DNA of 64,000 nucleotides, taken from the NCBI GenBank assembly GCA_963760215.1, contig CAVXCJ010000002.1, forward strand, positions 3,665,920 to 3,729,919. The letters run 5' to 3'. Below are positions 3,997 through 60,482 of the stretch, in pieces. Positions within the stretch are counted from its first letter, which is position 1; each line of letters opens with the position of its first letter. A model generated the notes under the pieces. It was not told where the DNA came from and searched no databases. It saw only the letters and a list, made by a program, of their open reading frames with translations. This stretch comes from Terriglobia bacterium. GTDB lineage: Bacteria > Acidobacteriota > Terriglobia > Terriglobales > Acidobacteriaceae. The position numbers were made by a program, and so were the translations under genes.

Positions 3997-4076
3997 AGTT
4001 TCAGTTTCAGTTTCAAGTTTCAGACGGTCGGAGCTGAACCCGAAACTGCGGACTCAAAACCCGAAACTGAAACTTC
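3997..4076 (+). repeat. Hexamer (AGTTTC) tandem array plus inverted partner: periodic-arm hairpin
   Basis: Left arm GAGTTTCAGTTTCAGTTTCAAGTTTCAG (3997-4023). Right arm contains CCCGAAACTGCGG and CCCGAAACTGAAACTTC (4034-4076). It lies directly upstream of the SD of the GspE-like gene. Confidence 0.85.
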
Positions 4077-4090
4077 TTCGTCGGGTTGCG

Positions 4091-4175
4091 GCTGACTTCC
4101 GCAAGTAACGCCGAGGGGAGAGGCGAGGGATTATACATCAGGCACCGGAAAGGCCGGATGGATTGCGAAGTCAGC
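4091..4175. repeat. 13-bp inverted repeat pair in divergent intergenic region
   Basis: GCTGACTTCCGCAA (4091-4104) versus TTGCGAAGTCAGC (4163-4175), with one bulge. They enclose a CCGGAAAGGCCGG mini-hairpin. Function unknown. Confidence 0.6.
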
Positions 4176-4300
4176 GCCCGGGACGGAGGGTACCTCCCTT
4201 GCAAGCGGGGGCAACGGTTTTTTTTCCCCGGCTCTTGAGCTATAGTGACGGCTCTGTCAGCAAGCACCAGTGTGCGCGCGCGCGCTGGTCAGGCCGGCCT

Positions 4301-6364
4301 ATGAGTACCACCAAAGCAACGCCGGACAAGGCGAGCGTGTCCAGCGCCTTGCGCACCATGCCTGCCGTCATCTGCTTCGATGGCGACACGCTGGCGCACA
4401 AGGCGATTGCCGCCTGCCAGCGCTACGCGCGGTTGAAGTACGCCGACCTGGCGTCGCGCGAGGCGGAGACCATCGTGGTGGTCTCCTCGGAACGGCTGCT
4501 GGCGCAATACCAGCCGCTGCTGCGCGCGCCCAACATCCGCATCATCGCCCTTTCCGACACCCGCTACCGCGACGCGCGGCTGGACGGCGCCGTGTACGGG
4601 TACCTGCCGGCCAATACCCAGCCGTTGCTGGTGGAACGCATGATGGACCAGGCGCTGGACCACATCCATCTGTCGGCGACGCGGCGGGAGGCGAACGAGC
4701 GGCTGGATCGCGCCACCAACGAGATCAAGGAGCTGAACGCGATCGGGGCGGCGCTGTCGGGCGAGCACGACACGGACAAGCTGCTGGAGATGATCCTGAA
4801 AAAGTCGCGGGAGATCACCAAGAGCGACGCGGGGTCGTTGTACCTGGTGAAAGAAGTGCCGCTGGAGGGCGAGGCGCTGCCGCCCGTACCCGAGGAACTG
4901 AAGGAGTACGGCGGCGCCAAGCTGGTGGTCAGCCGCAAGGAAAATACCAAGAAGGTACTGCTTTTCAAGCTGCCGCAGAATGACACCGTGGGTAACGTCG
5001 CGTTCCGCGAAGCGGTGATGGAGATCAGCGACAAGTCCATCGCCGGTTACGTGGTGCAGACGGGCGAGATCGTGAACCTGGAAGACGCGTATCACCTGCC
5101 GGAGCTGGTGCCGTACTCGTTCAACCGCAAGTTCGACGAGGATTCGGGATACCGCACCAAGTCCATGATCGCGGTGCCGATGCGCAACCCGAAGACGGGG
5201 GAGATCGTGGGCGTGGTGCAGTTGATCAACGCCAAACGGAACGCCGAGGCGAAGCTGAATTCGCTGTCGGCGGTAGTGACGCAGGTGGTGGCGTACTCGG
5301 TGCGGCAGCAGGAGATGGTGGCGTCGCTGGCCAGCCAGGCGGCGGTGGCGCTGGAGAACAGCCGGCTGTACCAGAAACAGCAGGAGCTGTTCGAGGGATT
5401 CGTGAAGGCGTCGGTGACGGCGATCGAGTCGCGCGATCCGACCACGTCGGGCCATTCGGAACGGGTGATGAACCTGACGGTGGCGCTGGCGGAGACGGTG
5501 GACCGAGCCGGCGACGGGGTGTACAAGGACGTCCAATTCACGCGCGACCAGATGAAGGAGATCCGGTACGCGTCGCTGCTGCACGATTTCGGCAAGGTGG
5601 GCGTGCCGGAGCAAGTGCTGGTGAAGGCGAAGAAGCTGCTTCCAGCGGACTTTAGGGATCTGCAGCGGCGGTTCCGCGACTCCGTGAAGCGCAGCATGCA
5701 GGTGCGGTCGCTGCAGTCGAAGCTCAATTACGTGCTGGAAAAGGGGCGCGACGAATACCTGGCAAAGCAGACGGAGTTCGATGCCTTTGTCGGGCAGCAG
5801 TTGGAGGAAGTGGACGCTCATTTCGCGACGGTGCTGCAGTCGAACGAGCCGACGGTGCTGCCGGAAGGAAGTTTCGAGAAGCTGACGGAGATTGCCGCGC
5901 GGCACTTTTTGGATTTCGATGGCGCGGACCAGCAGTTGCTGACGCCTGACGAGGTGAGGCTGCTTTCGATCCGCAAGGGATCGCTGGATGACAACGAGCG
6001 GGTGCTGATCGAGTCGCACGTGACGCACACCTTCGACTTTCTCAGCAAGATTCCGTGGACCAAGGAGATCCGTAACATTCCGGAAATCGCGCGCGGCCAC
6101 CACGAAAAGCTGACCGGGAAGGGATATCCCAACAGGCTGACGGCGCCGGAGATTCCGCTGCAAACGCGGATGATGACGATCTCCGACATTTTTGACGCGC
6201 TGGGGGCGAGCGACCGTCCTTACAAAAAGGCAGTGACGCTGGAAAGGTCGCTGCAAATCCTGGAGACGGAAGTGAAGGACGGCAACATCGATTCCAACCT
6301 GTTCCGCCTGTTCGTGGAAGCCAAGATTTGGGAGCGCTGGTATCAGGCGCCGTTCCCGTACTAG
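4301..6364 (+). CDS. GAF-domain HD-GYP phosphodiesterase (c-di-GMP hydrolase type)
   Basis: 687 aa. Receiver-like N-terminal region without an obvious phospho-Asp context, GAF-like middle region, then 'LLHDFGKVGVPE' and 'HHEKLTGKGYPNRL' (HD and GYP motifs). Start taken at MSTTKATPDK. Confidence 0.85.
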   Translation: MSTTKATPDKASVSSALRTMPAVICFDGDTLAHKAIAACQRYARLKYADLASREAETIVVVSSERLLAQYQPLLRAPNIRIIALSDTRYRDARLDGAVYGYLPANTQPLLVERMMDQALDHIHLSATRREANERLDRATNEIKELNAIGAALSGEHDTDKLLEMILKKSREITKSDAGSLYLVKEVPLEGEALPPVPEELKEYGGAKLVVSRKENTKKVLLFKLPQNDTVGNVAFREAVMEISDKSIAGYVVQTGEIVNLEDAYHLPELVPYSFNRKFDEDSGYRTKSMIAVPMRNPKTGEIVGVVQLINAKRNAEAKLNSLSAVVTQVVAYSVRQQEMVASLASQAAVALENSRLYQKQQELFEGFVKASVTAIESRDPTTSGHSERVMNLTVALAETVDRAGDGVYKDVQFTRDQMKEIRYASLLHDFGKVGVPEQVLVKAKKLLPADFRDLQRRFRDSVKRSMQVRSLQSKLNYVLEKGRDEYLAKQTEFDAFVGQQLEEVDAHFATVLQSNEPTVLPEGSFEKLTEIAARHFLDFDGADQQLLTPDEVRLLSIRKGSLDDNERVLIESHVTHTFDFLSKIPWTKEIRNIPEIARGHHEKLTGKGYPNRLTAPEIPLQTRMMTISDIFDALGASDRPYKKAVTLERSLQILETEVKDGNIDSNLFRLFVEAKIWERWYQAPFPY

Positions 6365-6394
6365 CAATTAGCGAATTAGCAATTAGCGATTAGC
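6365..6394 (+). repeat. Tandem 7/8-mer array (ATTAGCG units)
   Basis: CAATTAGCGAATTAGCAATTAGCGATTAGC begins at the HD-GYP stop codon. No inverted partner nearby. Confidence 0.85.
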
Positions 6395-6615
6395 TTGTGC
6401 AGTGTGAGGGATGGAGTGTCGTTGCACGACAGATCTAGTCTGCGCGCGCGCATCGCCTGGCGCGCTGCGTTGTCACATGGCAATGTGAGGTGACTCACTG
6501 AAACGGCCGCCCCAATTGAACCCGTATCGAGAGCGGCGGGGCCACGATTTGCTGGCGTTTTCGCGGCAAAGTACTAGACTTGCCTGTTTTCCATAGTTCA
6601 TACAGGGAGTCGGAC

Positions 6616-8707: not shown

Positions 8708-8710
8708 GGG

Positions 8711-8890
8711 GCAATTCTATCGGGTGATCGGGTGATCTGGTGATCGGGCGATTGAAAAGCAATCCAGAAGCGTGGCCGATTGCGGATTGAAGAACGGCAG
8801 GCAATTCTATCGGGTTATCGGGCGATCGGGTGATCGGGTGATTGAAATGCAAAACAGAAGCAGTGGCGATTGCCGATTGAAGAAGGGCAG
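8711..8890 (+). repeat. 2 x 90-bp tandem duplication, each copy containing 8-mer (ATCGGGTG) and 7-mer (ATTGCGG) sub-arrays
   Basis: Copy 1 (8711-8800) and copy 2 (8801-8890) both start GCAATTCTATCGGGT and end GATTGAAGAA(C/G)GGCAG. By eye about 85-90% identical. They fill the divergent intergenic region. Confidence 0.9.
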
Positions 8891-10462: not shown

Positions 10463-10524
10463 GCAGATGATCGCGGATGAACGCAGATGCTGATTGATAT
10501 TGGCTCATCCGGGTACATCTGTGG
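10463..10524 (+). repeat. 10-mer periodic array (GCRGATGNNN) with partial inverted arm
   Basis: GCAGATGATCGCGGATGAACGCAGATGCTGATTGAT ... CATCCGGGTACATCTGTGG. Confidence 0.75.
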
Positions 10525-10596
10525 CCAATTTTGTTGGCGCAAGCCTCCGTATACAATCAAAGCGAAAATTACTGAAACGAAAGGGCTCTCTGGCCG

Positions 10597-11967
10597 ATGA
10601 GAATGCTATTTGGAACCGACGGGATCCGCGGCGTGGCGGGCGATCCGCCGCTGGATGCCGCCACCGTGTATGCCGTGGGTGCGGCGCTGGGGCGGCAGTT
10701 GAAGGCGCAGCACGGCGACGCGCAGGTGGTGATCGGGCAGGACACGCGGGAGTCGAGCGCGTGGATTGCGGAGTCGCTGACACGGGGGCTGGAATCGGCG
10801 GGCGTCGCCGCGCAGAGCGCGGGCGTGATCACCACGCCGGCGGTGGCGTTTTTGGCGCGCGGCGGTTTTGCGGCGGGCGTGGTGATTTCCGCCTCGCACA
10901 ATCCCTGGACCGATAACGGCATCAAGATTTTCGGGCACGACGGCTACAAGCTCTCCGATGAGGTGGAGGAAAAACTGGAGGGCGACATCTTCGCGCTGCT
11001 GCACGGGAACCGGGTTCCGGCCGCCGCTGCGCAGCGAAGCGACAAGCCGGGGCCGATGGGCACCGAGCCGCGGCTGCTGAAGGAATATGTGGCGTGGCTG
11101 GCGAAGAGCGTGGAAGGGACTTCGCTGCGCCGCCTGCGCGTGCTGGTGGACTGTGCGAACGGAGCGGCGACACCGGTGGTGCACGAGGTGTTTCGTATTT
11201 GCGGCATTCACGCCGAACTGACCTGCGATCAGCCGAGCGGGCGGAACATCAACGAGAGTTGCGGCGCGCTGCATCCGAAAATCGTCGCGGAAAAAGTCGC
11301 GCATCGGCGCGGGATCTTCGACCTGGGAGTCACCTTCGACGGAGACGCAGACCGGGCGCTGTTCTCGGACCGCGAAGGACGAGTGGTGAACGGCGACGGC
11401 ATCCTGCTGCTGGCGGCGCGCGACATGAAAGCGCGGGGGCGGCTGAAGGGCGACACGGTGGTGGCGACCACGATGTCGAACATGGGCCTGGAGGTGGCGC
11501 TGGAGCGCAGCGGCATCCGCATGCTGCGGGCGCCGGTCGGAGACAAATACGTGCTGGAGGAGATGAAAAAGACCGGCGCGACGCTGGGCGGCGAGCAGTC
11601 GGGGCACATCATCTTCCGCGACGGCGATTCCACCACCGGCGACGGGCTGCTGACCGCGTTGCGGGTGATGGAGGTGATGGCGCGCAGCGCAAAGCCGCTC
11701 CACAAACTGGTCGGCGATTTGAAGGTCTATCCGCAGACGATCAAGAACGTGCGGGTCAGGGAGAAAACCCCGTTCGCCGATTTGCCCGAGGTCGCCGGCG
11801 CCATTGACGCGGCGCAAAAGGAGCTGCACGGGAGCGGAAGGGTGGTGGTGCGATATTCCGGGACGGAGGGGCTGGCGCGCGTGATGGTGGAAGCGGAGTC
11901 GGAAGACACGATGAAGCGGATCACGGAGGGAATCGCGGGAGCGATTGAGAGAGCGTTGGGAATTTAG
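10597..11967 (+). CDS. glmM: Phosphoglucosamine mutase
   Basis: 456 aa. 'LFGTDGIRG' N-terminus and phosphoserine loop 'SASHNPWTDNGIKIF'. Confidence 0.92.
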   Translation: MRMLFGTDGIRGVAGDPPLDAATVYAVGAALGRQLKAQHGDAQVVIGQDTRESSAWIAESLTRGLESAGVAAQSAGVITTPAVAFLARGGFAAGVVISASHNPWTDNGIKIFGHDGYKLSDEVEEKLEGDIFALLHGNRVPAAAAQRSDKPGPMGTEPRLLKEYVAWLAKSVEGTSLRRLRVLVDCANGAATPVVHEVFRICGIHAELTCDQPSGRNINESCGALHPKIVAEKVAHRRGIFDLGVTFDGDADRALFSDREGRVVNGDGILLLAARDMKARGRLKGDTVVATTMSNMGLEVALERSGIRMLRAPVGDKYVLEEMKKTGATLGGEQSGHIIFRDGDSTTGDGLLTALRVMEVMARSAKPLHKLVGDLKVYPQTIKNVRVREKTPFADLPEVAGAIDAAQKELHGSGRVVVRYSGTEGLARVMVEAESEDTMKRITEGIAGAIERALGI

Positions 11968-12005
11968 TGATTTAGCGATTGAGTGATTTAGTGATTGCGT
12001 GATGG
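11967..12005 (+). repeat. Tandem 8-mer array (GTGATTNN units)
   Basis: GTGATTTAGCGATTGAGTGATTTAGTGATTGCGTGATGG spans from the last base of the glmM stop codon across the cobB start codon. Confidence 0.85.
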
Positions 12006-16983: not shown

Positions 16984-17033
16984 CAGATCAGTTTAGCAAG
17001 GGCGGGAGCGGTCGGCGAGGGGCGGAGACGGTA

Positions 17034-17167
17034 GGGGTCCTTCGACTCGGACGCGCAAAAGCGGCGCGCAAAAGCCAAGAGTTCCCTCGGCTTCGCCTCG
17101 GGATTTCGGCAGCGGGCTCCCGCTTCGCTCACGCCCGCTAAACGCCTCAACCTCGCTCAGGATGACA
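17034..17167 (+). repeat. GC-rich repeat unit bounded by GGGGTCCTTCGACTCGG ... CTCGCTCAGGATGACA (long variant)
   Basis: The termini match units at 28549, 37543, 42721 and 45113. Intergenic, between the 5' end of polA and the 3' end of the CDO-like gene. Confidence 0.8.
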
Positions 17168-17197
17168 TCCGTTAATTTTTCTCCAAGACTTGAACAG

Positions 17198-17237
17198 CTG
17201 ATCCGCATTGATCCGTGAGATCCGTGGCCATCTGCGG
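17198..17237 (+). repeat. Tandem 9/10-mer array (ATCCGYNNN units)
   Basis: CTGATCCGCATTGATCCGTGAGATCCGTGGCCATCTGCGG ends at the stop codon of the gene at 17238. Confidence 0.8.
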
Positions 17238-44659: not shown

Positions 44660-44681
44660 ACGTCCGGCCGGAGGAGCAACC

Positions 44682-45053: not shown

Positions 45054-45112
45054 ACCGCTGCCAGTTTGGTGACCGAAGTGCCTTCGGACGGTTCAGGCGA
45101 TCTGTAAGAATA

Positions 45113-45165: not shown

Positions 45166-45329
45166 GCCGTGTTTAAGCTGCTTACCATTTATGCTGCCGC
45201 GGTGTACCTGAACGAGCAACGTGCAGCTTTGCGCCCTGCGCCTGAAGCCTTGCCACATAAGCTTTCTGAAGCCGGCTCGTCACCCGCCGCATCTTATTCA
45301 CAGAGCGCAATTTGGAGTCCCAGCCCGGT

Positions 45330-45930: not shown

Positions 45931-46002
45931 AGTCGTTAGTCGTTGATCGTTGGCCGCATCGAGCAACATTCCGGTGACCGACTAACGACGAACGACCAAC
46001 GA
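45931..46002 (+). repeat. Periodic-arm hairpin, heptamer GTCGTTN
   Basis: Left AGTCGTTAGTCGTTGATCGTTGGCC (45931-45955). Right GACCGACTAACGACGAACGACCAACGA (45976-46002). It fills the rimP-nusA gap. Confidence 0.9.
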
Positions 46003-46012
46003 CAGGATTGTT

Positions 46013-47596
46013 ATGGCAAGCGAGCTTTTCAACACCATTGACGCACTCAGCCGTGAGAAGGGGATCGACCCGCAGATTGTAGTCAGCGCGGTGGAAGACG
46101 CCATTGTGGTCGCCACCCGCAAGTACTACAAGACGCAGGAAAACTTGCGCGCCGAGCTGGACAAGGACACCGGCCAGATCCGTGCCTTCGTGGTCAAGCA
46201 GGTGGTGGAAAGCGCCGCGCAGATCGAAGACGCGACCAACCAGATCACGATTGATGACGCCCGCCGCCTCGATCCCAAAGCCGAGATCGGCGGCGAGTTG
46301 CGCATCCCGAAAGCCACCGACGTGCTGGGCCGCATTGCGGCCCAACTGGCCAAACAAGTCATCTTCCAAAAAGTACGCGAGGCCGAGCGCGACACGGTTT
46401 ACAACGAGTACATCGGCCGCGTGAACGAGGTCGTCAACGCCACCGTCAAGCGCGTCGAGGGGCCGGACCTGATCTTTGATATCGGCAAAGCCGAAGCCCG
46501 CATGCCGCGCAAGGAGCAGTCGCGGCTGGAATCGTTTGCCCCCGGCGAGCGTGTCCGCGCCGTCATCATCCGCGTCGAAAAGGCCGCCAAGGGCCCGCAG
46601 GTGATCGTCTCGCGCGCCGTGCCGGATCTGGTGCAGCACCTCTTCCAGACCGAGGTGCCGGAAATTTACGACGGCACCGTGGTCATCCGCGCCATTGCGC
46701 GCGAAGCCGGCGAGCGCACCAAGATTGCGGTGATGTCGAAGGACAAGGACGTGGACGCCGTCGGCGCCTGCGTGGGCATGAAGGGCATGCGCGTGCAGTC
46801 CATCATTCGCGAGCTGCGCGGCGAGAAGATTGACATCATCGAGTACCACGAAGATGCGGTCACCTTCGCCGAAAAGGCCTTGCAGCCCGCCAAGGTCAGC
46901 CGCGTCAGCGTGCTCGATACCGGCGAGAAGCACCTGGAAGTTATTGTGGACGATAGCCAGCTCTCGCTCGCCATCGGCAAGAAGGGCCAGAACGTTCGCC
47001 TGGCCGCCAAGCTGCTCGGCTGGAAAATTGATATCAAGAGCGAGGAAGAGAAGCGCCAGGAGGTCGAGCAGCAGATGTCGGCGCTGGTCGGAACCCAGGC
47101 CACGCCGCTGTCGGTGGTGCCTGATCTCGGCGAAGGCCTGCTGGAGAAGCTGACGGCCGCCGGCGTTTCCACTGTCGAGCAGTTGGCCGACATGACGCCG
47201 GAGCAACTCGAGGCAATTCCCGGCATCGGCCCCAAGACAGTGGAAAAAATCAGCATTGCGGTCAATAATTATTTTTCCAGCCTGGAAAGCGGAGAGGTTC
47301 CGTCGGCCGCGCCGGATTTAGACGCCTCTGACGACCTCCCTGTCCCGGGCGAGCAGGGTGCCCTGCCGCCGGAAGATGTCGGCCCCGATGCCGGCGGTGA
47401 GGCGGGCGATACCGAGGGCTTGGCGCAGGATTCTGCCGCGTCACCGCAGAGTGCGAGCGAGTTGGCGGAAGAGGGCCAGGACCTGGAAGCGGGAACCGTC
47501 AGCGGGGTGGAGAACGCTCCTCCTGCCGGCGAGGCGGAAGCCACGACGCAGGACCAGCATCCTGACGCAGAAGATGTTCCGAAGGAAGAGCAGTAA
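46013..47596 (+). CDS. nusA: Transcription termination/antitermination factor NusA (acidic C-terminal extension)
   Basis: 527 aa. S1/KH regions 'GERVRAVIIRV' and 'ACVGMKGMRVQSIIREL', an HhH-type repeat, and an acidic low-complexity tail. Confidence 0.95.
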   Translation: MASELFNTIDALSREKGIDPQIVVSAVEDAIVVATRKYYKTQENLRAELDKDTGQIRAFVVKQVVESAAQIEDATNQITIDDARRLDPKAEIGGELRIPKATDVLGRIAAQLAKQVIFQKVREAERDTVYNEYIGRVNEVVNATVKRVEGPDLIFDIGKAEARMPRKEQSRLESFAPGERVRAVIIRVEKAAKGPQVIVSRAVPDLVQHLFQTEVPEIYDGTVVIRAIAREAGERTKIAVMSKDKDVDAVGACVGMKGMRVQSIIRELRGEKIDIIEYHEDAVTFAEKALQPAKVSRVSVLDTGEKHLEVIVDDSQLSLAIGKKGQNVRLAAKLLGWKIDIKSEEEKRQEVEQQMSALVGTQATPLSVVPDLGEGLLEKLTAAGVSTVEQLADMTPEQLEAIPGIGPKTVEKISIAVNNYFSSLESGEVPSAAPDLDASDDLPVPGEQGALPPEDVGPDAGGEAGDTEGLAQDSAASPQSASELAEEGQDLEAGTVSGVENAPPAGEAEATTQDQHPDAEDVPKEEQ

Positions 47597-50593: not shown

Positions 50594-50663
50594 GGTGGTC
50601 AGTGGTTAGTGGCCAGTGGTCGGTGGTTTGCTGGCCACTGAGCACCGGCCACTGACCACTGAC
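50594..50663 (+). repeat. Periodic-arm hairpin, heptamer AGTGGYC
   Basis: Left GGTGGTCAGTGGTTAGTGGCCAGTGGTCGGTGG. Right GGCCACTGAGCACCGGCCACTGACCACTGAC. The right arm ends one base before the ATG at 50664. Confidence 0.9.
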
Positions 50664-50951
50664 ATGATCGCTTTTCTAACAATTGAACTTCGCATCGAAG
50701 CGGCGCACTCCCTCAAGGACAAGCGCCAGGTGCTGCGCAGCCTCAAGGACAAGCTGCGCGCCAGCTTCAACGTGTCGGTGGCGGAACTGGACGCGACCGA
50801 CTTGTGGCAGCGGGCGACCGTGGGTGTGGTAAGTATTTCCGGGTCGCGCGACTACCTGCGCGGCCTGATGGAAAAAGTGGAGCGCGCGGCCACCAGAATT
50901 ACCAATAATGCCGGAGCAGAAATCACCGATTCCTTCATCGAATACTTCTAG
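50664..50951 (+). CDS. DUF503 (YlxP-like) protein
   Basis: 95 aa. 'LRIEAAHSLKDKRQVLRSLKDKLRASFNVSVAELD'. Conserved infB-rbfA operon position. Confidence 0.75.
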   Translation: MIAFLTIELRIEAAHSLKDKRQVLRSLKDKLRASFNVSVAELDATDLWQRATVGVVSISGSRDYLRGLMEKVERAATRITNNAGAEITDSFIEYF

Positions 50952-51023
50952 CCATTAGCCGTTCGCCATTGGCCATGGGCAACAAAGAACGGTCCTAACG
51001 GCCCAAGGCCAATGGCCAACGGC
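50951..51023 (+). repeat. Periodic-arm hairpin, heptamer GCCRTTN
   Basis: Left GCCATTAGCCGTTCGCCATTGGCCATGGGC. Right GGTCCTAACGGCCCAAGGCCAATGGCCAACGGC. It fills the DUF503-rbfA gap. Confidence 0.9.
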
Positions 51024-51032
51024 TGATTTCTT

Positions 51033-51395
51033 ATGGAACACCGCAACGCACAACATCATTACGATCGCCTCGGCGAGACCCTGCGCGAGGAGATCTCCGC
51101 CATGATCGAGGGCGAACTCACCGACCCCCGCATCGGCCTGGCCACGGTCACCGACGTCAGAATGTCGCCCGACGGCAAGTCCGCCCACGTCTCCATCAAT
51201 GTAGCGGGCGACGACCAAGAGGCGGAGCAGACCCTGGAGGGTCTGGAAGCCGCCCGCAACTATATCCGGCACGAGCTTTTGGACCGTTTAAGGATTCGTC
51301 ATGCGCCCGATCTGTTTTTTCATCTGGACAGGTCGCAACAGTTGGAGACTAGAATTGACGAGTTACTCCGGCGAGTGAAAAAGCGGAGAAGGTAA
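51033..51395 (+). CDS. rbfA: Ribosome-binding factor A
   Basis: 120 aa. 'RLGETLREEISAMI...DPRIGLATVTDVRMSPDGKSAHVSI'. Confidence 0.9.
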   Translation: MEHRNAQHHYDRLGETLREEISAMIEGELTDPRIGLATVTDVRMSPDGKSAHVSINVAGDDQEAEQTLEGLEAARNYIRHELLDRLRIRHAPDLFFHLDRSQQLETRIDELLRRVKKRRR

Positions 51396-51427: not shown

Positions 51428-52384
51428 GTGGGAGAGAAGCTCAACGCGATTCTGGCGGAGATCGGACGGCGGGACCGCTTTGTCCTCACCTCGCATGCGC
51501 GTCCCGACGGCGATGCCATCGGCTCCGTGCTCGCCTGCTGCGAGATCCTCCGCCGCATGGGCAAGCAGGCGGAAGTCGTGCTCAACGGCGCCGTGCCGCA
51601 CATCTACCGCCCGCTTCCTTTCGCCGATTCCGTCATTAACGCGCAGGCCATCAACGGCCACTACGAAGCCGCGATCGTGCTGGAGTGCGACAGTATCCAG
51701 CGCGCCAACCTGGAAGGACTGGAAAAACAGTTTCTCATCAACATTGATCACCACGTCAGCGGGCAGCCGTTTGCGCACGTCAACTGGATCGATCCCAGCG
51801 CCTGCGCCACCGCCGAGTTGATTTACCGGCTGGCGCGCGCCGCCAATGTACCCATCTGCCCCAACGTCGCCACCTGCCTCTACACCGCCGTCCTGACCGA
51901 CACCGGCGCGTTCTGCTACGTCGGCACCAGCGAACGGACCTTTGCCCTGGCGCAGGAGCTGGTGCGCGCCGGCGCCGATCCCGCGCGCATCGCGCAGAAT
52001 ATTTATTTTTCCGTGCCCACGTCGAAAATTCGCCTGCTCGGCGCCGCGCTTTCCGGCCTGCATCGCGACGGCGACCTGGCGTGGATGGCCGTCAACCGCG
52101 AGCAAATGGAGCGCTGCGGAGCGATTGACGAAGATTGTGAAGGGCTGGTGAATTACGCCCTCGGAATCGAAGGCGTGGAGGTCGCGGTCTTCTTCCGCGA
52201 ACTGGCCGACCGGCGCTGGCGCGTCAGCCTGCGCAGCAAGGGCGCGGTCGATGTCTCCCACGTCGCCGCCCGCTTCGGCGGCGGAGGCCACTTCTGCGCC
52301 AGCGGCTGCGCCCTCGATGGCCCCGTCTCCGTCGCCGCCGAACGCATTCTCGCCCAGCTCCGCATGGAGCGGAAAACTGTATGA
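51428..52384 (+). CDS. DHH-family phosphoesterase (NrnA-like oligoribonuclease / pAp phosphatase)
   Basis: 318 aa, GTG start. 'HARPDGDAIGS', 'NIDHHVS', DHHA1 'GGGGHFCASG'. Confidence 0.85.
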   Translation: MGEKLNAILAEIGRRDRFVLTSHARPDGDAIGSVLACCEILRRMGKQAEVVLNGAVPHIYRPLPFADSVINAQAINGHYEAAIVLECDSIQRANLEGLEKQFLINIDHHVSGQPFAHVNWIDPSACATAELIYRLARAANVPICPNVATCLYTAVLTDTGAFCYVGTSERTFALAQELVRAGADPARIAQNIYFSVPTSKIRLLGAALSGLHRDGDLAWMAVNREQMERCGAIDEDCEGLVNYALGIEGVEVAVFFRELADRRWRVSLRSKGAVDVSHVAARFGGGGHFCASGCALDGPVSVAAERILAQLRMERKTV

Positions 52385-52399
52385 TCATAGCCGCGGTGA

Positions 52400-52903
52400 A
52401 TGGCGGCGGAGGAATCTGTAATCGTGCAGACCGATAATTGGGCGGCGTTAATGGAGCAATTTGATAGTGGGGCTCCCATTCCGACGGCGAATTTGTCGGA
52501 CATGAAGCAGATGTGGGATGCCTCTCGTCGCATGCAACCGAAGCCCAATGCTGCGATGGGACTGGGCGGATACGCAGCGTACGGAGTCGATGCTTCGACC
52601 GGAGGCGCGGAGAAATTCATCCCGCTATGGTTGCGGCAGAATTTGCTGGCAGCGCTGGTTGGGTGCGGAGTTCTCAACGACTACCTGCATGGCGATGAAT
52701 TGGACGAGAAGGTAATCCGGGCAGCCGCCACCATGCCGTGCAACAAAGACGATTTGGCTGAGGCCGCGGTGCAACTCCGGCTTGCGCAATCCCCAGCGGA
52801 ACTCGTGGCACAAGCTAAAGAAGAGATGCGGGCAAAAGGTTACGACGCCGACAAACCAAGCATCGACGGCAAATTCCTCGCATGGATGCGTGATAACTGC
52901 TGA
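52400..52903 (+). CDS. Hypothetical protein (no recognisable domain)
   Basis: 167-aa ORF 15 nt after nrnA. GC content is visibly lower than its neighbours. Start uncertain (an alternative GTG at 52424 lies 11 nt after GGAGG). Confidence 0.45.
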   Translation: MAAEESVIVQTDNWAALMEQFDSGAPIPTANLSDMKQMWDASRRMQPKPNAAMGLGGYAAYGVDASTGGAEKFIPLWLRQNLLAALVGCGVLNDYLHGDELDEKVIRAAATMPCNKDDLAEAAVQLRLAQSPAELVAQAKEEMRAKGYDADKPSIDGKFLAWMRDNC

Positions 52904-53103
52904 CATCTCTTGTCGTCAGCAGAAAAGGACAGCAACACGGCGACAAAGGAACGCTTAGCCAGCCGGCCACGCGGTTCGCACGCGCACTTCCCCAGCGCCA
53001 CGCGCTCCTTACCTGGATGCATTCCTGCGCGCGCGCGTCGTTCTTCCTGCGCGCATGGGTAAAATGGTTGCGTGAGTCAATCTGTGATTCAGGCAGGGAG
53101 CAT

Positions 53104-54792
53104 GTGACCGATACCCGTGCCGCCGCTCCTGCCGCCCCCACCCAAGCCGCCGCCTGGACCGAACTGGTGACGCTGGCGGGTTTCTGCGCCTACCTGTTCT
53201 ACTTCGGGTTGGGAAGCTTCGGGCTGGTCGGCGCCGATGAGCCGAGGTACGCGCAGATCGCGCGCGAGATGCTCGCCCGCCACGACTGGATCACGCCCAC
53301 GCTCAACGGCCTGCCGTGGCTGGAAAAACCGGCGCTGTACTACTGGAGCGCCATGGTTTCTTACAAGCTGTTCGGGGTGAGCGACTGGGCGGCGCGCGTG
53401 CCCTCCGCCGTGTTCGCCACCGCGATGATCGCGGCCATGTATGGCTTCGTGCGGCGCTTCCAGGCCGGCATGCAACTCGATGCCGCGCTGATCGCGGCTT
53501 CTTTTGCGGCCGTGATCGGATTTGGCCGCGGCGCCTCCACCGACATGCCGCTGGCGGCGACGCTGACCCTGGGACTGCTCGCGTGGTACGCCTGGCGGGA
53601 GACCGGACGCAAACCGTGGCTGGCGATTTTCTACCTCATGATTGCGCTGGGCACGCTGGCCAAAGGTCCGGTCGCGCCGGCGCTGGCGGGCGCGATCATC
53701 GTTGTATTTGCCCTGATGCAACGGTCGGAAACCCGCGCCACACGCCTGATCGCGGACACAATGTGGATTCCGGGCGTGCTGCTGTTTTTCGCGGTCGCGC
53801 TGCCCTGGTATGTCGCAGTGCAAATGAAGACCCACCAGTTTTTCCAGGTGTTCATCCTGCAGCACAACCTGGAGCGCTTCGGAACCAACCTGTATCGCCA
53901 CCAGCAGCCCTACTGGTATTACGTACCGGTATTCCTGCTCGGCGTGCTGCCGTGGACGGTGTACGTACTGGCGGCCATTGTGGCAGCACTGCGCGGCACG
54001 ACGGGCCACGACGCGGCGCCGACGCTTGCCAACACACCCACATCTGCCAAAAACGGGCAGATGTGGGGCACCAACGCGTGGCGCGCGTTTCTGCTGCTGT
54101 GGATTGCGGCGCCGCTGGTGGTGTTCACGATTTCGCGGTCGAAACTGCCCGGTTACATTCTGCCTTCCGTTCCACCGTGCGCGCTGCTGCTTGCCGATTG
54201 GATGAGAACCCGCCGGGGCGAGCGCGCCGCTGCGCCGTTGGCCATTTTTCATTCTCTGGCGTGCGGACTGCTGCTCGGAGGAGCGCTGCTGGCGCCTTAC
54301 TTCATCGTGCGGATGCATCCGCCGGCGCAGGCAACCACCATCGCCGCTGCTGCCGCCGCGGTGATCGCCGTCGCCATGCTGGCCAGTTTGCGCTGGCAGG
54401 GCCTGCGCGTGCTCCGCTTTGTCACGCTGGTGCCGGTGGTGCTCGGGCTGGCATTCGTGCTGCGAGTGAGCGCGCCGGCCATTGACCGCACCCAATCGGC
54501 GCGGCCGGTAGCGCTTGAGCTGGCGCGGCTGGATACGCGCGGCGCACCGCTATCCGCGTTCAACGTCACCCGCGAGCTGGAGTATGGCCTGGATTTTTAC
54601 CGCAACCAGCCGCTGTTGCGCTACGAGCGCGGCGAGGTGCCTGCGGGCGGCCACCTGCTGATCGCGCGCTCCGGCTCGGAGCCGCAACTCGAGGCGCTGC
54701 TCGCGCCGCGGCGGCTGTCGCATGTGGGCAGCTTCGCCCCGCAGCATCTGGAGTTTTATTGGGTATCGTCGGGAGCGGCGCATCACCACTGA
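53104..54792 (+). CDS. Family-39 glycosyltransferase (ArnT/PMT-like), polytopic membrane protein
   Basis: 'GADEPRYAQIAREM' motif after TM1, then more than 10 TM helices. GTG start chosen (AGGGAG upstream); an in-frame ATG at 53017 is an alternative. Carries an in-frame hairpin repeat at 54037. Confidence 0.8.
   Translation: MTDTRAAAPAAPTQAAAWTELVTLAGFCAYLFYFGLGSFGLVGADEPRYAQIAREMLARHDWITPTLNGLPWLEKPALYYWSAMVSYKLFGVSDWAARVPSAVFATAMIAAMYGFVRRFQAGMQLDAALIAASFAAVIGFGRGASTDMPLAATLTLGLLAWYAWRETGRKPWLAIFYLMIALGTLAKGPVAPALAGAIIVVFALMQRSETRATRLIADTMWIPGVLLFFAVALPWYVAVQMKTHQFFQVFILQHNLERFGTNLYRHQQPYWYYVPVFLLGVLPWTVYVLAAIVAALRGTTGHDAAPTLANTPTSAKNGQMWGTNAWRAFLLLWIAAPLVVFTISRSKLPGYILPSVPPCALLLADWMRTRRGERAAAPLAIFHSLACGLLLGGALLAPYFIVRMHPPAQATTIAAAAAAVIAVAMLASLRWQGLRVLRFVTLVPVVLGLAFVLRVSAPAIDRTQSARPVALELARLDTRGAPLSAFNVTRELEYGLDFYRNQPLLRYERGEVPAGGHLLIARSGSEPQLEALLAPRRLSHVGSFAPQHLEFYWVSSGAAHHH
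54037..54072 (+). repeat. Hairpin repeat inside the GT39 CDS
   Basis: CCCACATCTGCC-AAAAACG-GGCAGATGTGGG-GCACC, encoding PTSAKNGQMWGT. Near-identical to the intergenic copy at 20271-20307. Confidence 0.9.
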
Positions 54793-54911
54793 GTTGTGAG
54801 AAATGCCAAACCTGGATTCCTCGCGGGCTGAAGCCCGCTCGGAATGACAAAGATCAAAGAGCTTGTCCGGCACGGCTGAAGCCGTGCCCTTCCCACAGTG
54901 CGCACAACTCA
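54790..54911 (+). repeat. MITE-like 122-bp unit bounded by 9-bp inverted repeats, carrying two tetraloop hairpins
   Basis: TGAGTTGTG (54790-54798, overlapping the GT39 stop) / CACAACTCA (54903-54911). Inside are GCGGGC-TGAA-GCCCGC and GGCACGGC-TGAA-GCCGTGCC. It is followed by AACTCAAAACTCAGAACTCG heptamers. Confidence 0.6.
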
Positions 54912-55036
54912 AAACTCAGAACTCGTTGCGCCCGGTGTTCCCCGGTTTGCTTCCGCAGTTCCCCGCGTCTAGACTTCCACGTTGCGTTAAACCGCGGTCG
55001 GCGTGGCTGGCATCGAATCCGGTAGTGGACTGAAGC

Positions 55037-56002
55037 GTGGAGATCCTCGATCTCAGGCATTTTTCGTCGTCGGACCTGCGTCCGCTGCTGGACGAAGAGG
55101 CACAGGTGTGGTCCAAGCTGCTGGCGTGGGACTACAGCAATTCGACGGAGATGATCCTGCGCTACATTGACGCGCGCATCCTGCCCGGCTACGCGGCGCT
55201 GGAGAAAGGCCGCATCTGCGGGTATGCGTTCTTCGTCTACGAGGGCAGCAAGGGAGTGATCGGCGATTTGTTTGTGGAAGGCGACGGCGTGCGCTACGCC
55301 AGTCCGACCGAACACCCGGTGGAAACGCGGCTGCTGACGCACGTCATCGAGACGCTGCAACAGTCACCGGGCATTCACCGCATCGAGGCGCAACTGCTGG
55401 TGCATCCGACGGGCGCGGTGGCGCGGCCGTTCCTGGAAGACGGCTTCCATCGCTATCCGCGCTTGTTCATGGTGCTGCCAATAGCGTCGAACGGGAACAA
55501 CGGGCAGGGCAGGCCGCCTTCCGTCCCCGAGGGAGTTGATATCCGGCGTTGGAGCGAACAGGACTACCAGGCGGCCGCGGCGGTGATCACGGCGGCCTAC
55601 CGCGGGCACATCGATTCCGAGATCAACGACCAGTACCGCACCATCGCCGGGTCGCTGCGGTTCCTGAACAATATCGTGCGTTTTCCCGGCTGCGGGCAGT
55701 TCGACGGCGGCTCATCCTTTATCGCCTATCACCGCCCTTCGCGAACCGCGGTGGGATTGATCCTGTGCTCGCGGGTGAAGAACGACGTCGGGCATATCAC
55801 GCAGGTGTGCGTCCTTCCCGAGCACCGCGGCAAGGGAATCGGCGAGGCGCTGCTGGCGGCGAACCTGCAGGACCTGAAGCACCGGCGATTTTCCATGCTG
55901 TCGCTGACCGTCACGGAAGCGAACAAATCGGCGGTGGAGCTGTATAAGCGCCTGGGCTACCACATCGAGCGGGTGTTTGACGCGTTTGTCTGGGAAGGGT
56001 GA
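55037..56002 (+). CDS. GNAT-family N-acetyltransferase (two-lobed)
   Basis: 321 aa, GTG start. C-terminal lobe 'VLPEHRGKGIGEALL...AVELYKRLGY' is the acetyl-CoA binding motif. Confidence 0.75.
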   Translation: MEILDLRHFSSSDLRPLLDEEAQVWSKLLAWDYSNSTEMILRYIDARILPGYAALEKGRICGYAFFVYEGSKGVIGDLFVEGDGVRYASPTEHPVETRLLTHVIETLQQSPGIHRIEAQLLVHPTGAVARPFLEDGFHRYPRLFMVLPIASNGNNGQGRPPSVPEGVDIRRWSEQDYQAAAAVITAAYRGHIDSEINDQYRTIAGSLRFLNNIVRFPGCGQFDGGSSFIAYHRPSRTAVGLILCSRVKNDVGHITQVCVLPEHRGKGIGEALLAANLQDLKHRRFSMLSLTVTEANKSAVELYKRLGYHIERVFDAFVWEG

Positions 56003-56259
56003 AGAAATTGCCGAATTGCCGAATTTGAGAATTGGCGAATTTTACGGCTCAATTCTGCAATTCTGCAATTCGTCAATGTCTGCAGCAGCCACATGGCCCA
56101 GCCGGCGCCGATCACGCCGACAATAAACAACGTGAAGCAATAGGCGCCGTAGCGCACCATGTCGCGCGGGGTGTTGCGTTGCGTGATGCCGAAGACCACG
56201 GAAGCGAAGAGGGCGAACAGCAGCGCGGCGGTGAAGTGCGACAAGTGCAGGGGGCTCAT
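55957..56259 (-). CDS. Small membrane protein (2 TM); C-terminal ~40 codons repeat-derived
   Basis: ATG overlaps the upstream stop (ATGA). MSPLHLSHFTAALLFALFASVVFG...FTLFIVGVIGAGWAMWLL. The tail reads through the 8-mer array, and the ORF's last 46 nt overlap the convergent GNAT gene. Confidence 0.5.
   Translation of the reverse strand: MSPLHLSHFTAALLFALFASVVFGITQRNTPRDMVRYGAYCFTLFIVGVIGAGWAMWLLQTLTNCRIAELSRKIRQFSNSAIRQFLHPSQTNASNTRSMW
56006..56078 (+). repeat. Periodic-arm hairpin, octamer AATTGCCG / CAATTCTG
   Basis: Left AATTGCCGAATTGCCGAATTTGAGAATTGGCGAATTTT. Right CTCAATTCTGCAATTCTGCAATTCGTCAATG. Confidence 0.9.
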
Positions 56260-58132: not shown

Positions 58133-58240
58133 GTCCCCTTCGACTGCGCTCAGGGCAGGCTCTACGGGACTCTGAACATTTTTCGAACAGCTTCCCCGGC
58201 ACTTACGTGCCGGGCTAGGTTCTACCGCCCCTTCGGGGCT
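58133..58240 (+). repeat. Repeat block (core + two mini-hairpins)
   Basis: CCCTTCGACTGCGCTCAGGGCAGGCTC (58136-58162), CCGGCAC-TTAC-GTGCCGG (58196-58213), GCCCC-TTC-GGGGC (58228-58240). Confidence 0.8.
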
Positions 58241-59037: not shown

Positions 59038-59058
59038 CCGCTCCTATACATTGCCCCC

Positions 59059-60333
59059 ATGGTTTCTCGCCGCGAAGTTTTGAGGTTGGGCGCAGTCGCC
59101 GCCGGAACATCTTTCCTGCCGTTGACCGCCATTAGTGAGCAGACAGCCGCGCAGCCAGCGTCCATCCAGGCGCTCAAGTCCATGCGCGACCAGGCCCGCC
59201 CGATTACGGGTGACGAGCGCCGGCTACGCATCGAGCGCGCACGCCAACTCATGGCCGCCAACAGGCTTGACGCCATCTTCATGATCGGCGGCAGCTCGCT
59301 CCTCTATTTCGCCAATGTCAGTTGGTGGAACAGCGAGCGCCTGGGCGCGCTGGTGCTTCCCGCCAAAGGCGAACCGTTTTTTGTCGCACCCGCGTTCGAA
59401 GAGGAACGGCTGAGGGAGCAACTCGCGAATGGGCCGTTCGACAGCAAGGCCGACGTGCGGGTCTGGCAGGAAGACGAAGACCCATATCGTCTCGTTGCGC
59501 AAGGACTGAAGGACCGCGGCATCTCGGCGGGCACGCTGGGCATGGAAGAACGGGTGACATTCGTGTTCAGCAACGGCGTGGCGCAGGCGGCGCCGGCGCT
59601 TAAGATGGTGAGCGCGACCCCGGTCACGGCTGGGTGCCGCATGGCGAAATCGGCGCACGAACTCGAGCTGATGAAGCTGGCCAACCAGGCGACATGGACG
59701 GTGTATCGCGCCGTCTATCAGGCGATGCAGCCGGGCATGACGCAGCGCGATGTCGGCGCGCTGATTACCGCTGCGTACGGCAATGTCGGTTTCCGCGGAG
59801 GCGCAAGCGTGCAGGTGGGCGAATACACCGCGCTGCCACATGGCTCGCGCACCGCGCAAGTCATCCACGAAGGCATGCCGATCATGATTGACGATGGATG
59901 CACGGTGGAGGGCTACAACTCCGACATCACGCGCACCTTCGTGCTCGGTAAAGCCAGCGACCAGCAGAAGCGCGTGTTCGAACTGGTGCAGCGGGCGCAG
60001 CAAGCGGCGCTGGCGGCGGCGCGCCCGGGCGTGGCGTGCGAAGCCGTGGACGCGGCCGCGCGCACAGTCATCACCGGCGCCGGATACGGCCCGGGGTATA
60101 AATTTTTCGGGCACCGCGTGGGCCACGGTATCGGCATGGACGGCCACGAATGGCCGTACCTGGTGCATGGCAACACCCTTCCACTGGCGCCGGGCATGAC
60201 GTTCAGCGATGAGCCGGGCATCTACATTCGCGGCGAATTCGGCGTGCGGCTGGAGGACGATATCTACGTCACCACCGAGGGCGCGGAGATGTTCACCACC
60301 CCCAGCCCGTCCATCGAGCACCCGTTCGGCTGA
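59059..60333 (+). CDS. M24-family Xaa-Pro dipeptidase with Tat-like signal
   Basis: 424 aa from MVSRREVLRLGAVAAG. 'HRVGHGIGMDGHE' and 'SDEPGIY'. The upstream 144 codons of the ORF are antisense to the alkD-like gene. Confidence 0.85.
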   Translation: MVSRREVLRLGAVAAGTSFLPLTAISEQTAAQPASIQALKSMRDQARPITGDERRLRIERARQLMAANRLDAIFMIGGSSLLYFANVSWWNSERLGALVLPAKGEPFFVAPAFEEERLREQLANGPFDSKADVRVWQEDEDPYRLVAQGLKDRGISAGTLGMEERVTFVFSNGVAQAAPALKMVSATPVTAGCRMAKSAHELELMKLANQATWTVYRAVYQAMQPGMTQRDVGALITAAYGNVGFRGGASVQVGEYTALPHGSRTAQVIHEGMPIMIDDGCTVEGYNSDITRTFVLGKASDQQKRVFELVQRAQQAALAAARPGVACEAVDAAARTVITGAGYGPGYKFFGHRVGHGIGMDGHEWPYLVHGNTLPLAPGMTFSDEPGIYIRGEFGVRLEDDIYVTTEGAEMFTTPSPSIEHPFG

Positions 60334-60336
60334 GCG

Positions 60337-60367
60337 AGTCTTCGGTCGTCAGTCTTCAGTCGTTAGC
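60337..60367 (+). repeat. Tandem heptamer array (AGTCKTC units)
   Basis: AGTCTTCGGTCGTCAGTCTTCAGTCGTTAGC starts 4 nt after the stop codon at 60333. Confidence 0.85.
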
Positions 60368-60445
60368 AAGCCGGAATCCCGGATTGTGGATGGCTGGCTG
60401 AACCACCGGGCCCCAAACCGGCGCTAGTGATAGGCGCGGAATTAT

Positions 60446-60482
60446 CTAACTGGCCACCGGCCACTAGCCACAGACCACTACC
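60446..60482 (+). repeat. Tandem heptamer array (GGCCACN units; reverse complement of the AGTGGCC type)
   Basis: CTAACTGGCCACCGGCCACTAGCCACAGACCACTACC. Not complementary to the array at 60337. Confidence 0.85.

Follow-up and report, generated by a model that had tools for sequence, protein, structure and literature searches.

Short tandem arrays of 6-10-nt units occur in the intergenic spacers of a 64,000-nt stretch of a metagenome-assembled genome (MAG) of the Terriglobales (Acidobacteriota), positions 3,665,920 to 3,729,919 of the 4.36-Mb contig CAVXCJ010000002.1, which as a whole is called the window here. About half of the arrays have an inverted partner array, with which they form a stem of 25-40 bp with periodic mismatches. 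The intergenic arrays were confirmed to be real and beyond chance. We suggest that they are of the long simple-sequence repeat (LSSR) type, were made by slippage, and have had their hairpin structure kept by selection as an intercistronic or 3'-end RNA stem-loop, an explanation in which our confidence and our doubt are about evenly balanced. Slippage is the most likely origin, and the hairpins are probably retained as RNA stem-loops for which we infer a function. A first reading of the window, made from the letters alone and referred to below as the original prediction, had listed 17 such loci.

The arrays were compared with those of 80 related genome loci and 80 soil-metagenome loci. Close relatives are the genomes or contigs at 95-96% nucleotide identity (L163, L164-L167, L081 and L082), which were found through exact-protein look-ups. 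The NusA protein of the window (46013-47593) shares 66-87% identity with proteins encoded in MAGs of the Terriglobales and of Candidatus Sulfotelmatobacter. A scan of metagenomes with the DUF503 protein gave no strain-level relative, the best match being 86% identical.

Intergenic arrays and their placement

The genes of the window were mapped from codon-position G+C signatures, with doubtful open reading frames (ORFs) checked against Pfam, and under the resulting map of 48 genes the intergenic DNA amounts to 6212 nt (9.7%). Of the 17 listed loci, 14 were called by Tandem Repeats Finder (TRF), run on the window, with periods of 6-10 and copy numbers of 2.7-5.2 (Table 1). The other three (17198, 28445 and 45931) are weaker, yet visible by reading; at 45931 the 5' arm is under the TRF threshold and the 3' arm was detected at 45979. 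Additional arrays lie at 8809, 28468, 42690, 54906 and 44511. Under the 48-gene map, 19-21 of the 27 window arrays of period 5-11 are intergenic, and the 6-8 intragenic ones have low scores and are mostly GC-rich; array density is about 27-fold higher in intergenic than in coding DNA. The concatenated intergenic DNA contained 17 arrays, compared to 0.12 ± 0.34 (maximum 2) in 200 dinucleotide shuffles, and this comparison with shuffled intergenic DNA, which the original prediction had proposed, does not support chance. The G+C content of the window arrays is 33-67%, compared to 63% for the genome, and the GC skew of the window is positive.

The loci had been described as sharing one architecture without sharing one sequence. 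An all-versus-all comparison of the intergenic regions agreed with this, as it found no array-to-array similarity beyond the units, together with other dispersed repeats that are described below. Repeats can also be nested in a repeat: at 8710-8890, a 90-bp unit is present as a tandem duplicate with 88% identity and contains one (ATCGGGYG)4 array and two CCGATTG units. The arrays produce false ORF extensions in gene calls. Two spurious translations that had been ascribed to them were recovered, namely a KLKLKL stretch seen on the reverse strand at 3997 and FAVQITNHQSQL, which reading of the reverse strand at 28445 identified as an N-terminal over-extension of ORF 27175-28623.

The arrays are placed close to stop and start codons, as had been noticed at first reading. 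Where the spacer has 40 nt or more of slack, 69 arrays start 0-5 nt after a stop codon, compared to 10.7 expected under uniform placement (6.5-fold). In two operon gaps the median distance of the stem base is 1 and 4 nt from the preceding stop codon and 7 and 1 nt from the start codon that follows, with medians of 34 and 26 paired bases in the stems, and at convergent gene ends (21517 and 56006) the hairpin reaches from stop to stop. Among the close relatives, the coding sequence on either side stays conserved as far as the stop codon, and conservation resumes a few nt ahead of the start codon. The array-bearing rimP-nusA gaps are without a Shine-Dalgarno sequence before nusA, and several long array-free gaps have AAGGTGG.

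Hairpin structure and arm polarity

RNA folding found periodic-arm hairpins at seven loci of the window, compared to the eight originally claimed, and at 3997 the z-score was only -1.6. The predicted stems consist of runs of 6-7 bp broken by regular mismatches or G-U pairs. No pairing was found at 6365, 8711, 11967, 24666, 44433 and 60337/60446 (z about 0 to -1.6).

The two arms differ in composition. Over all loci and on either strand, the 5' arm is G+T-rich in 61 of the 68 paired arrays (T 35%, G 28%, A 21%, C 16%) and the 3' arm is A+C-rich, while unpaired arrays show no such polarity. The paired arms have about 45-50% G+C and are thus poorer than the genome (63%). The reverse complement of an A/C-rich 3' arm is G/T-rich, so the G/T-first order appears on both strands, and it is present under every orientation of the flanking genes. 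G/T-first polarity is an intrinsic property of the hairpin, not a property of the + strand. A polarity dictated by the transcription or replication strand was considered and rejected because of this symmetry under reverse complement and because all gene orientations show it. The original prediction had placed an AKT-type arm always 5' on the + strand; the G/T-first arm stood and the restriction to one strand did not. Its consensus A-K-T-N-K-Y-S fits the heptamers starting with AGT or ATT, about 7 of the 17 units, and does not fit the remaining units.

Distribution and unit vocabulary

Many of the 80 related genome loci have the same arrays, with densities that reach 5 per kb of non-coding DNA, and so do many of the 80 soil-metagenome loci. 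In the more distant Acidobacteriaceae among the related loci (L069-L080), the arrays are practically missing. Counted by period over all loci, there are 240 intergenic arrays of period 7, 72 of period 8, 13 of period 10, nine of period 6 and six of period 9; the intragenic arrays have mainly periods of 6, 9 or 15. The heptamer arrays fall into 43 clusters. GTCGTTG, CAGTGGY and CAGTTCT/CAGGTCT account for 103 of the 240, and GGTTTCAA and ATTGGGTA for 47 of the 72 octamer arrays, in a tally that is biased by orthologous gaps. YAG, CAGT and AATT are recurrent cores of the units. These results show that the units form a limited, lineage-wide vocabulary that recurs between genomes. Window units belonging to recurrent families are AGTCGTY (24666, 45931 and 60337), AGTGGYC (50594 and 60446) and the GCGGAT type (10463, 17198 and 21517). 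The statement that each locus has a different unit is therefore right inside the window and wrong beyond it, where a small number of unit families are found again in different genomes.

Persistence and turnover at orthologous gaps

Under strict criteria, a periodic hairpin was found in the rimP-nusA gap of 32 of 52 relatives and in the infB-DUF503 gap of 23 of 35, i.e. in 62-66%, compared to 21 of 249 other gaps of 50-300 nt (8%). The hairpins in these two gaps use at least eight unit families, depending on the clade. At orthologous gaps the unit is ATTGGGTA in about 15 genomes, GGTTTCAA in about seven and AGGTCTC in about six, further units are AGTTCTC, AGTTGCC, AGCTCTT and GGGCTTC, and the window has AGTCGTT. 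Many relatives also have arrays at the site that follows the homologue of gene 55037-56002, mostly TAGCTYT arrays that incorporate the stop codon. The comparison of orthologous gaps that the original prediction had called for thus found arrays in the relatives, with units and copy numbers differing between strains. Among the gaps of the window and 41 loci, 2 of 49 gaps between opposite-strand genes were occupied, which may be an artefact of the crude gene caller or an operon or replication-strand effect.

Turnover among the close relatives is very uneven from one gap to its neighbour, and the hairpins were shown to be conserved, resized, homogenised within a unit, present or absent, or replaced by unrelated units at 95-96% identity. 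In the rimP-nusA gap, six genomes have a near-identical hairpin with five substitutions in 85 nt, and L164 has one extra 3' unit. The infB-DUF503 gap has two alleles, (AGTGGYC) in the window and L163 and (CAGTTTC) in L164 and L082; the latter two are one unit per arm apart (three vs four), and one unit of the window departs from L163 at three positions simultaneously. One unit change among the close relatives is from GAGCACC to GGCCACT. In the nusA-infB gap, L163 and L167 have an 80-nt (GTCGTTN) hairpin, of which the window and three others retain only CGTCGTGAGTC. The first 1.5 units of the arm are preserved in this short allele, an indication that the hairpin grew or was deleted in place. 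Five conspecific genomes have five different array hairpins in the DUF503-rbfA gap, and after gene 55037-56002 the window has (AATTGCCG) and L163 has (AATTTGGTA), also an octamer hairpin. Birth of a hairpin by inverted duplication of the flank found no support at the nusA-infB alleles, where the reverse complement of the short allele scores 19 against the long allele, compared to 15.2 ± 2.9 in shuffles.

Within a unit family, the identity of the gap can match or exceed that of third codon positions, as in L017 and L023 (0.84 vs 0.73). The pairwise comparisons of gap and third-position identity were mixed, with some families persisting and others replaced, and for this reason a uniformly accelerated turnover was rejected and the claim of fast turnover everywhere was dropped.

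Several other differences were observed around these gaps. In L081, a DUF433/DUF5615 pair, which is toxin-antitoxin-like, lies at 1428-1978 between infB and DUF503, exactly where the others have the array hairpin. Most of the relatives L002-L054 have a conserved element of about 100 nt before rbfA (TTGTTACCTCTGTACTTA ... GCGCGACAATAGCAC ... TTTTCTGATATTCTCATGCGTTTTAC), after which come the Shine-Dalgarno sequence GAGGTG and a GTG start codon; in the window and its close relatives this element is missing, and an array hairpin and an ATG start with no Shine-Dalgarno sequence are there instead. A 2.4-kb segment of the window (42660-45107, compared with L163 8949-9096) with genes 42803-44413 (-) and 44649-45053 (+) is missing from L163, and the arrays 42662 and 44433 are located at or inside its edges. 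Further indels between the window and L163 are at 52372-52994, where the window has 620 nt extra, and at 54779-54937.

Comparison with known repeat classes

The arrays are of the LSSR or short tandemly repeated repetitive (STRR) type, in a multi-unit and hairpin-rich variant, and do not form a new class. The original prediction had not recognised them as a described class; this did not hold, as heptamer-dominated intergenic repeats are already described under LSSR, STRR, TAACTGA and GGGAATC. The statistical LSSR survey of genomes by Mrazek, Guo and Shah (2007), which PMC4679880 and PMC4692102 summarise, deals with tandem repeats of 5-11-nt units that are longer than chance would give. Heptanucleotides form the largest class, genes exclude units of a length not divisible by three, and the repeats are patchily distributed over taxa. 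The arrays here likewise consist of tandem 5-11-nt units above chance (17 vs 0.12) with heptamers dominant and frame-breaking units outside genes. Hairpin pairing, stop-codon adjacency and turnover of units at orthologous sites do not appear in the summaries of that survey in the same two papers.

The closest case is that of the GGGAATC repeats of Xanthomonas (Rehm et al. 2015, PMC4692102). These have mostly four units, are intergenic and mainly between co-directional genes, and form 70-75 inverted pairs per genome that are "always convergent" with the G-rich arm first. They are on or beside stop codons, their sites are preserved with lengths and sequences that differ from species to species, and most are transcribed (PMC4692102). 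Heptamers of about four units, stop-codon adjacency and convergent inverted pairs are shared with the arrays of this study. In contrast, the repeats of Xanthomonas and Nostoc (GGGGAYT) have a single unit with a G-tract (GGG or GGGG), whose repetition gives four tracts, and were read as G-quadruplexes, whereas here there are dozens of units, mostly without G-tracts. In the window only ATCGGGYG (8719 and 8809) has GGG, and the main families GTCGTTG, CAGTGGY, CAGTTCT, GGTTTCAA and ATTGGGTA are mostly without G-tracts. The arrays also differ from those of Xanthomonas in that the unit is swapped at one site between strains, in that octamers and decamers occur too, and in the phylum.

STRR were described in the cyanobacterium Calothrix, where three heptanucleotides are tandemly repeated (Mazel et al. 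1990, cited in PMC4692102), and, as cited there, share with the arrays tandem heptanucleotides in non-coding DNA and several unit types per genome. STRR have a few fixed genome-wide units in heterocystous cyanobacteria, whereas there are 43 heptamer clusters in our Terriglobales data, so the arrays fall outside STRR in this respect. Only a few inverted heptamer pairs were reported in Nostoc (PMC4692102). The TAACTGA direct repeats of Beggiatoaceae, cyanobacteria and Bacteroidetes (MacGregor 2015, PMC4679880) are intergenic and have two to six copies of the heptamer, the last at most a few nt away from a start codon that has no Shine-Dalgarno sequence. There was one inverted pair among 170 sets, and related heptamers were rarely repeated (PMC4679880). 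A link to stop codons was not reported there, whereas the arrays here are stop-anchored. The (GAACTGA)n 3' arms of relatives match TAACTGA at 6 of 7 bases; the TAACTGA unit itself is absent from the window, which has many other units in place of a single one. The STRR units TTGGTCA, CCCCAGT and CAACAGT may resemble the units GTCGTTG and TGACCAC seen here.

Other classes fit less well. Repetitive extragenic palindromes (REPs) and bacterial interspersed mosaic elements (BIMEs) are intergenic hairpins, often after stop codons, with proposed roles in mRNA stabilisation, termination or supercoiling. REPs are many copies of one palindrome mobilised by REP-associated tyrosine transposases (RAYTs), whereas the arrays have tandem-repeat arms and no sequence common to the loci. 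A CRISPR array was also rejected, because CRISPR repeats are 24-50 nt with unique spacers and the units here are 6-10 nt, head-to-tail and without spacers. That the loci are neither copies of a mobile element nor a CRISPR array had been correctly stated at the outset. Rfam searches of the window at gathering and permissive thresholds, another of the checks proposed at that time, gave no family at any array. We found no report in the searchable literature of such repeats in Acidobacteriota, nor of a many-unit version with unit replacement between close strains. Thus the occurrence in Acidobacteriota, the many units and the unit replacement between close strains appear to be new. In the mutation accumulation study of Acidobacterium capsulatum, indels made up >26% of the mutations and were over-represented in non-coding DNA (PMC8717266); A. 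capsulatum belongs to the group without arrays in our sample.

Array loci and other repeats in the window

The arrays are listed in Table 1. Gene 50661-50951 encodes DUF503, 51033-51395 RbfA and 51428-52384 a DHH-family protein. A tRNA scan gave no match.

Table 1. Tandem arrays of the window, named by the locus numbers of the original prediction, with TRF starts for the loci listed there and results of RNA folding
Locus	Array	Position	Strand	TRF start	Context	dG (kcal/mol)	z	Evidence
3997	(AGTTTC)4	3997-4023	.	3997	5' hairpin arm, divergent gap; 7 nt upstream of GGAGG ribosome-binding site of minus-strand gene starting at 3980	-33.6 (with 4039; outer stem paired)	-1.6	TRF, reading
	interrupted 3' arm CCCGAAACTG ... 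CCCGAAACTGAAACTT	4039-4075	.		complements 3997-4023			
6365	unpaired (TAGCRAT)4.6	6362-6394	+	6362	opens with TAG stop of gene 4163-6364			TRF, reading, fold
8711	(ATCGGGYG)4	8719-8754	.	8719	divergent gap; first copy of 90-bp duplication; 12 nt upstream of minus-strand gene start at 8707			TRF, reading
	second (ATCGGGYG)4	8809-8844	.		second copy of 90-bp duplication			TRF
10463	period-10 hairpin (GCRGATGNNN)2.7, loop, CATCCGGGTACATCTGTGGC	10463-10525	+	10463	between co-directional genes	-34.8	-4.3	TRF, fold
11967	unpaired (GTGATTNN)5	11963-12004	+	11962	fills 31-nt gap, stop 11965-11967 to start ~11999			TRF, reading, fold
17198	weak, three GATCCGY(N2-3) units	17200-17238	-		below TRF threshold; directly after stop (17238-17240) of minus-strand gene 17238-17834		-1.4	
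21517	period-10 hairpin (CGCGGATNNN)3 / (ATCCGCGNNN)3	21520-21583	.	21520	fills convergent gap, stops 21501 and 21584	-52.1	-9.2	TRF, fold
24666	unpaired (CAGTCGY)3.4	24659-24690	.	24666	~20-26 nt upstream of start (24640) of minus-strand alcohol dehydrogenase gene			TRF, fold
28445	two adjoining short arrays, (GATTKRT)3 and (CGCGAAGGN)3	28445-28497	-		between minus-strand genes; in false N-terminal extension of ORF 27175-28623; three GATTKRT units beside TRF array at 28468			TRF, reading
42662	(CAAGGCN)4 then (YTCGGGC)2.7	42662-42708	-	42657	weak pairing only		-1.7	TRF, fold
44433	unpaired (ATTGNCG)3.6	44433-44460	.	44433	divergent gap			TRF, reading
	second, direct (GTTGKTT-type) array	44511-44530			same divergent gap as 44433			
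45931	rimP-nusA hairpin (AGTCGTT)3, loop, (NAACGAC)4	45931-46003	+		starts 4 nt past stop, stops 9 nt short of nusA ATG	-32.0	-3.2	reading, fold
50594	infB-DUF503 hairpin (AGTGGYY)5, loop, (GRCCACT)4	50594-50663	+	50595	starts 5 nt past infB stop; last unit overlaps ATG at 50661	-51.8	-7.7	TRF, fold
50951	DUF503-rbfA hairpin (GCCRTTN)4, loop, (CAAYGGC)3	50951-51023	+	50951	starts inside TAG stop; stops 9 nt short of rbfA ATG	-45.6	-8.0	TRF, fold
	short (AACTCAR)2.7	54906-54925	+		upstream of gene 55037-56002; spacer of L163 here 30 nt			TRF
56006	octamer hairpin (AATTGCCG)4.5 / (CAATTCTG)3.5	56006-56078	.	56006	4 nt past stop at 56002	-32.5	-4.5	TRF, fold
60337	unpaired (AGTCKTC)4	60337-60367	+	60337	4 nt past stop at 60333			TRF, reading, fold
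60446	unpaired (GGCCACN)4, A/C-rich orientation	60450-60481	+	60449	ends ~4 nt before presumed start 60485			TRF, reading

The intergenic DNA of the window contains other repeats as well. A non-tandem dispersed repeat, CCCTTCGRCTTCGCTCAGGGCAGGCTCT, has five copies (1776, 20166, 24808, 44568 and 58136), two of which extend to a 93-nt match with 87% identity (20165-20255 vs 44567-44659). The Acido-Lenti-1 RNA family (RF01687) matched at 58195-58240 (+) with 57.6 bits and at 1789-1832 (+) with 35.3 bits, the latter just below the gathering score. Neither match coincides with an array, and both overlap, or sit just downstream of, a copy of CCCTTCGRCTTCGCTCAGGGCAGGCTCT; therefore, the Rfam motif may belong to a larger repeated element. 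A second dispersed element consists of GGGGTCCTTCGACTCGG, a variable GC hairpin and CCTCGCTCAGGATGACA. It is found at 17032-17173, 37560-37611, 42720-42771 and 45111-45170 and also in L001, L009 and L024, and it fills spacers that bear array hairpins in close relatives, e.g. the gap at 37520 compared with L163. The 24-nt hairpin AAGGGCACGGCTTCAGCCGTGCCG occurs twice in inverted orientation (35213-35236 and 54868-54891). Several GC hairpins like it are in the 250-nt spacer after 35173, whose counterpart in L163 is 72 nt long and has a (GTGATTTA)4 array. A perfect 27-nt inverted match, GTCCCGTAGGTGTCTGTGTCGTAGCTG, is located at 368-394 and 1709-1735, in the spacers flanking gene 395-1627. ArgJ is split in two ORFs in the window (37678-38815, -) and in L163 (3925-5103), owing either to a frameshift that is conserved or to a gene truly made of two pieces.

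Discussion

We propose that the arrays arise and are remodelled through replication slippage together with intrastrand template switching, and that periods which break the reading frame would exclude them from genes. The one-unit gain, the difference of three vs four units and the presence or absence of an 80-nt hairpin at 95-96% identity were observed and are changes of the slippage type. Selection would then retain the hairpin as a structure and not as a sequence, since the transcript would need a stem-loop at that spacer. As a 3'-end or intercistronic element, the stem-loop might block exonucleases, or at convergent gene ends it might be where transcripts are processed or terminated. Where an operon gap is without a Shine-Dalgarno sequence, the hairpin could juxtapose the two codons, stop and start; a ribosome that terminates would then melt the outer 5' arm and free the next start (translational coupling). 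The unpaired arrays in 5' regions may be copy-number tuning knobs. The sense strand has more G-U pairs than the antisense strand and folds 2.5 kcal/mol better at rimP-nusA (n=72, p=0.002), which gives weak support to a role at the RNA level.

A number of results weigh against this explanation. The folding gap between sense and antisense strands is small and confounded with strand mutational skew, and at infB-DUF503 it is 1.6 kcal/mol and not significant (p=0.07). RNAalifold, run on 15 ATTGGGTA hairpins, gave no information on covariation, as their cores do not vary and the register of the alignment is ambiguous. Gaps of 10-20 nt without a hairpin were found at the same sites in L036, L039, L031 and L033, and therefore the hairpin is dispensable there. 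The missing Shine-Dalgarno sequences are suggestive of coupling but are confounded by phylogeny, and the counts across relatives are not independent, as many arrays share orthologous gaps. For the G/T-first polarity and the scarcity of periods 6 and 9, slippage and RNA function alike offer no explanation. The array hairpins have no U-tracts, and consensus terminator-like sites between 42 and 62 kb were at chance level (18 vs 18.5 expected). Therefore, the hairpins are not classical intrinsic (Rho-independent) terminators, a candidate that was rejected also because the arms are G+C-poorer than the genome. A single weak terminator-like match of 5 pairs was found in an array hairpin, at 51013-51025 in the tip of the 50951 3' arm, and T-runs follow the rimP-nusA hairpins of some relatives only.

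As the main alternative, the arrays could be a functionless by-product of a strong bias of this lineage towards tandem and inverted duplication of 7-8 nt, with the products piling up where frameshifts are harmless and abutting stop and start codons only because deletion bias stripped the rest of the spacer. We consider this unlikely, yet it deserves serious weight: the rapid turnover, the presence or absence alleles and the unrelated units at one site at 95-96% identity are what it would lead to, the tiny array-free gaps and the many different units with no RNA family matched are in its favour, and so are the high indel share in A. capsulatum (PMC8717266) and the heptamer preference, which Mrazek 2007, as cited in PMC4679880, ascribed to polymerase slippage. 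However, neutrality is countered by the occupancy of two gaps well above the 8% seen elsewhere, by arrays that are stop-anchored even when at least 40 nt of other spacer is left, by gaps conserved within unit families as much as, or more than, third positions, and by a strong G/T-first polarity in pairs and none in unpaired arrays. In a more far-reaching reading, the paired arrays might be a general operon device of the Terriglobales: a self-renewing hairpin made of frame-breaking repeats would physically tie a gene's stop codon to the start of the following one, which is without a Shine-Dalgarno sequence. Ribosomes would be handed to the next gene by shunt-like or melt-and-reinitiate coupling, and a C-poor arm that is transcribed first would never expose a Rho loading site, hence the G/U-first polarity. 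We regard such a device as distinctly unlikely.

Periodic protein-binding sites are very unlikely in our judgement, whether for an RNA-binding translation regulator, for an oligomeric protein that binds one motif per unit, or for a DNA-binding nucleoid protein. Three to five copies are typical of oligomeric binders such as HutP and TRAP, and the recurrent cores YAG, CAGT and AATT would agree with binding sites. The GAACTGA unit in 3' arms of relatives is one base off TAACTGA, a repeat that also lies just upstream of starts and for which an RNA-binding translation regulator was proposed (PMC4679880). Nevertheless, there are dozens of units in one genome, units are swapped at one site between strains, no motif is common to all families (GTCGTTG and GGTTTCAA are without YAG), and about half of the arrays are locked in stems. 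Contingency (phase-variable) loci, in which changes of copy number in a promoter or 5' untranslated region switch or tune the expression of a neighbour, would explain the variation in copy number among close relatives and the arrays in the divergent promoter regions at 3997, 8719 and 44433, and 7-bp repeats tune the hmw1A adhesin gene of Haemophilus (PMC2424069 and PMC8262952). This explanation is highly improbable here, because most of the arrays are after stop codons or in housekeeping operons (rimP-nusA-infB-rbfA) rather than at genes for surface or virulence functions, arrays of three to five copies are short for a high switching rate, and the inverted pairs are left unexplained. Hardly credible is a miniature mobile element of the REP, REPIN (paired REP sequences) or MITE (miniature inverted-repeat transposable element) kind that inserts hairpins into spacers. 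Presence or absence and replacement alleles are sharply bordered at stop and start codons, and other dispersed hairpin repeats are in the same spacers; but no two array loci of the window are alike beyond their units, conserved ends and target duplication were not seen, and the 1.5 units kept in the short nusA-infB allele suggest a change in place.

Heptanucleotide repeats in spacers were reportedly noticed as early as the work on Calothrix in 1990. For practical purposes, the arrays should be masked or modelled in intergenic alignments, and they are potential strain markers for abundant soil Acidobacteriota. The conserved, resized, absent and replaced hairpins of the rimP-nusA-infB-rbfA operon constitute a natural experiment that can separate structural selection from mutational churn. 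PMC4679880 and PMC4692102 gave no function to heptanucleotide spacer repeats. If the operon device were true, the same logic would cover the heptamer repeats of Xanthomonas, Nostoc and Beggiatoaceae and would answer the question of their purpose. Because the arrays described here have a Xanthomonas-like architecture with unrelated, mostly non-quadruplex units, the periodic hairpin and its position appear to be the common denominator, and these, rather than sequence or quadruplex, may be the shared feature of bacterial heptamer repeats.

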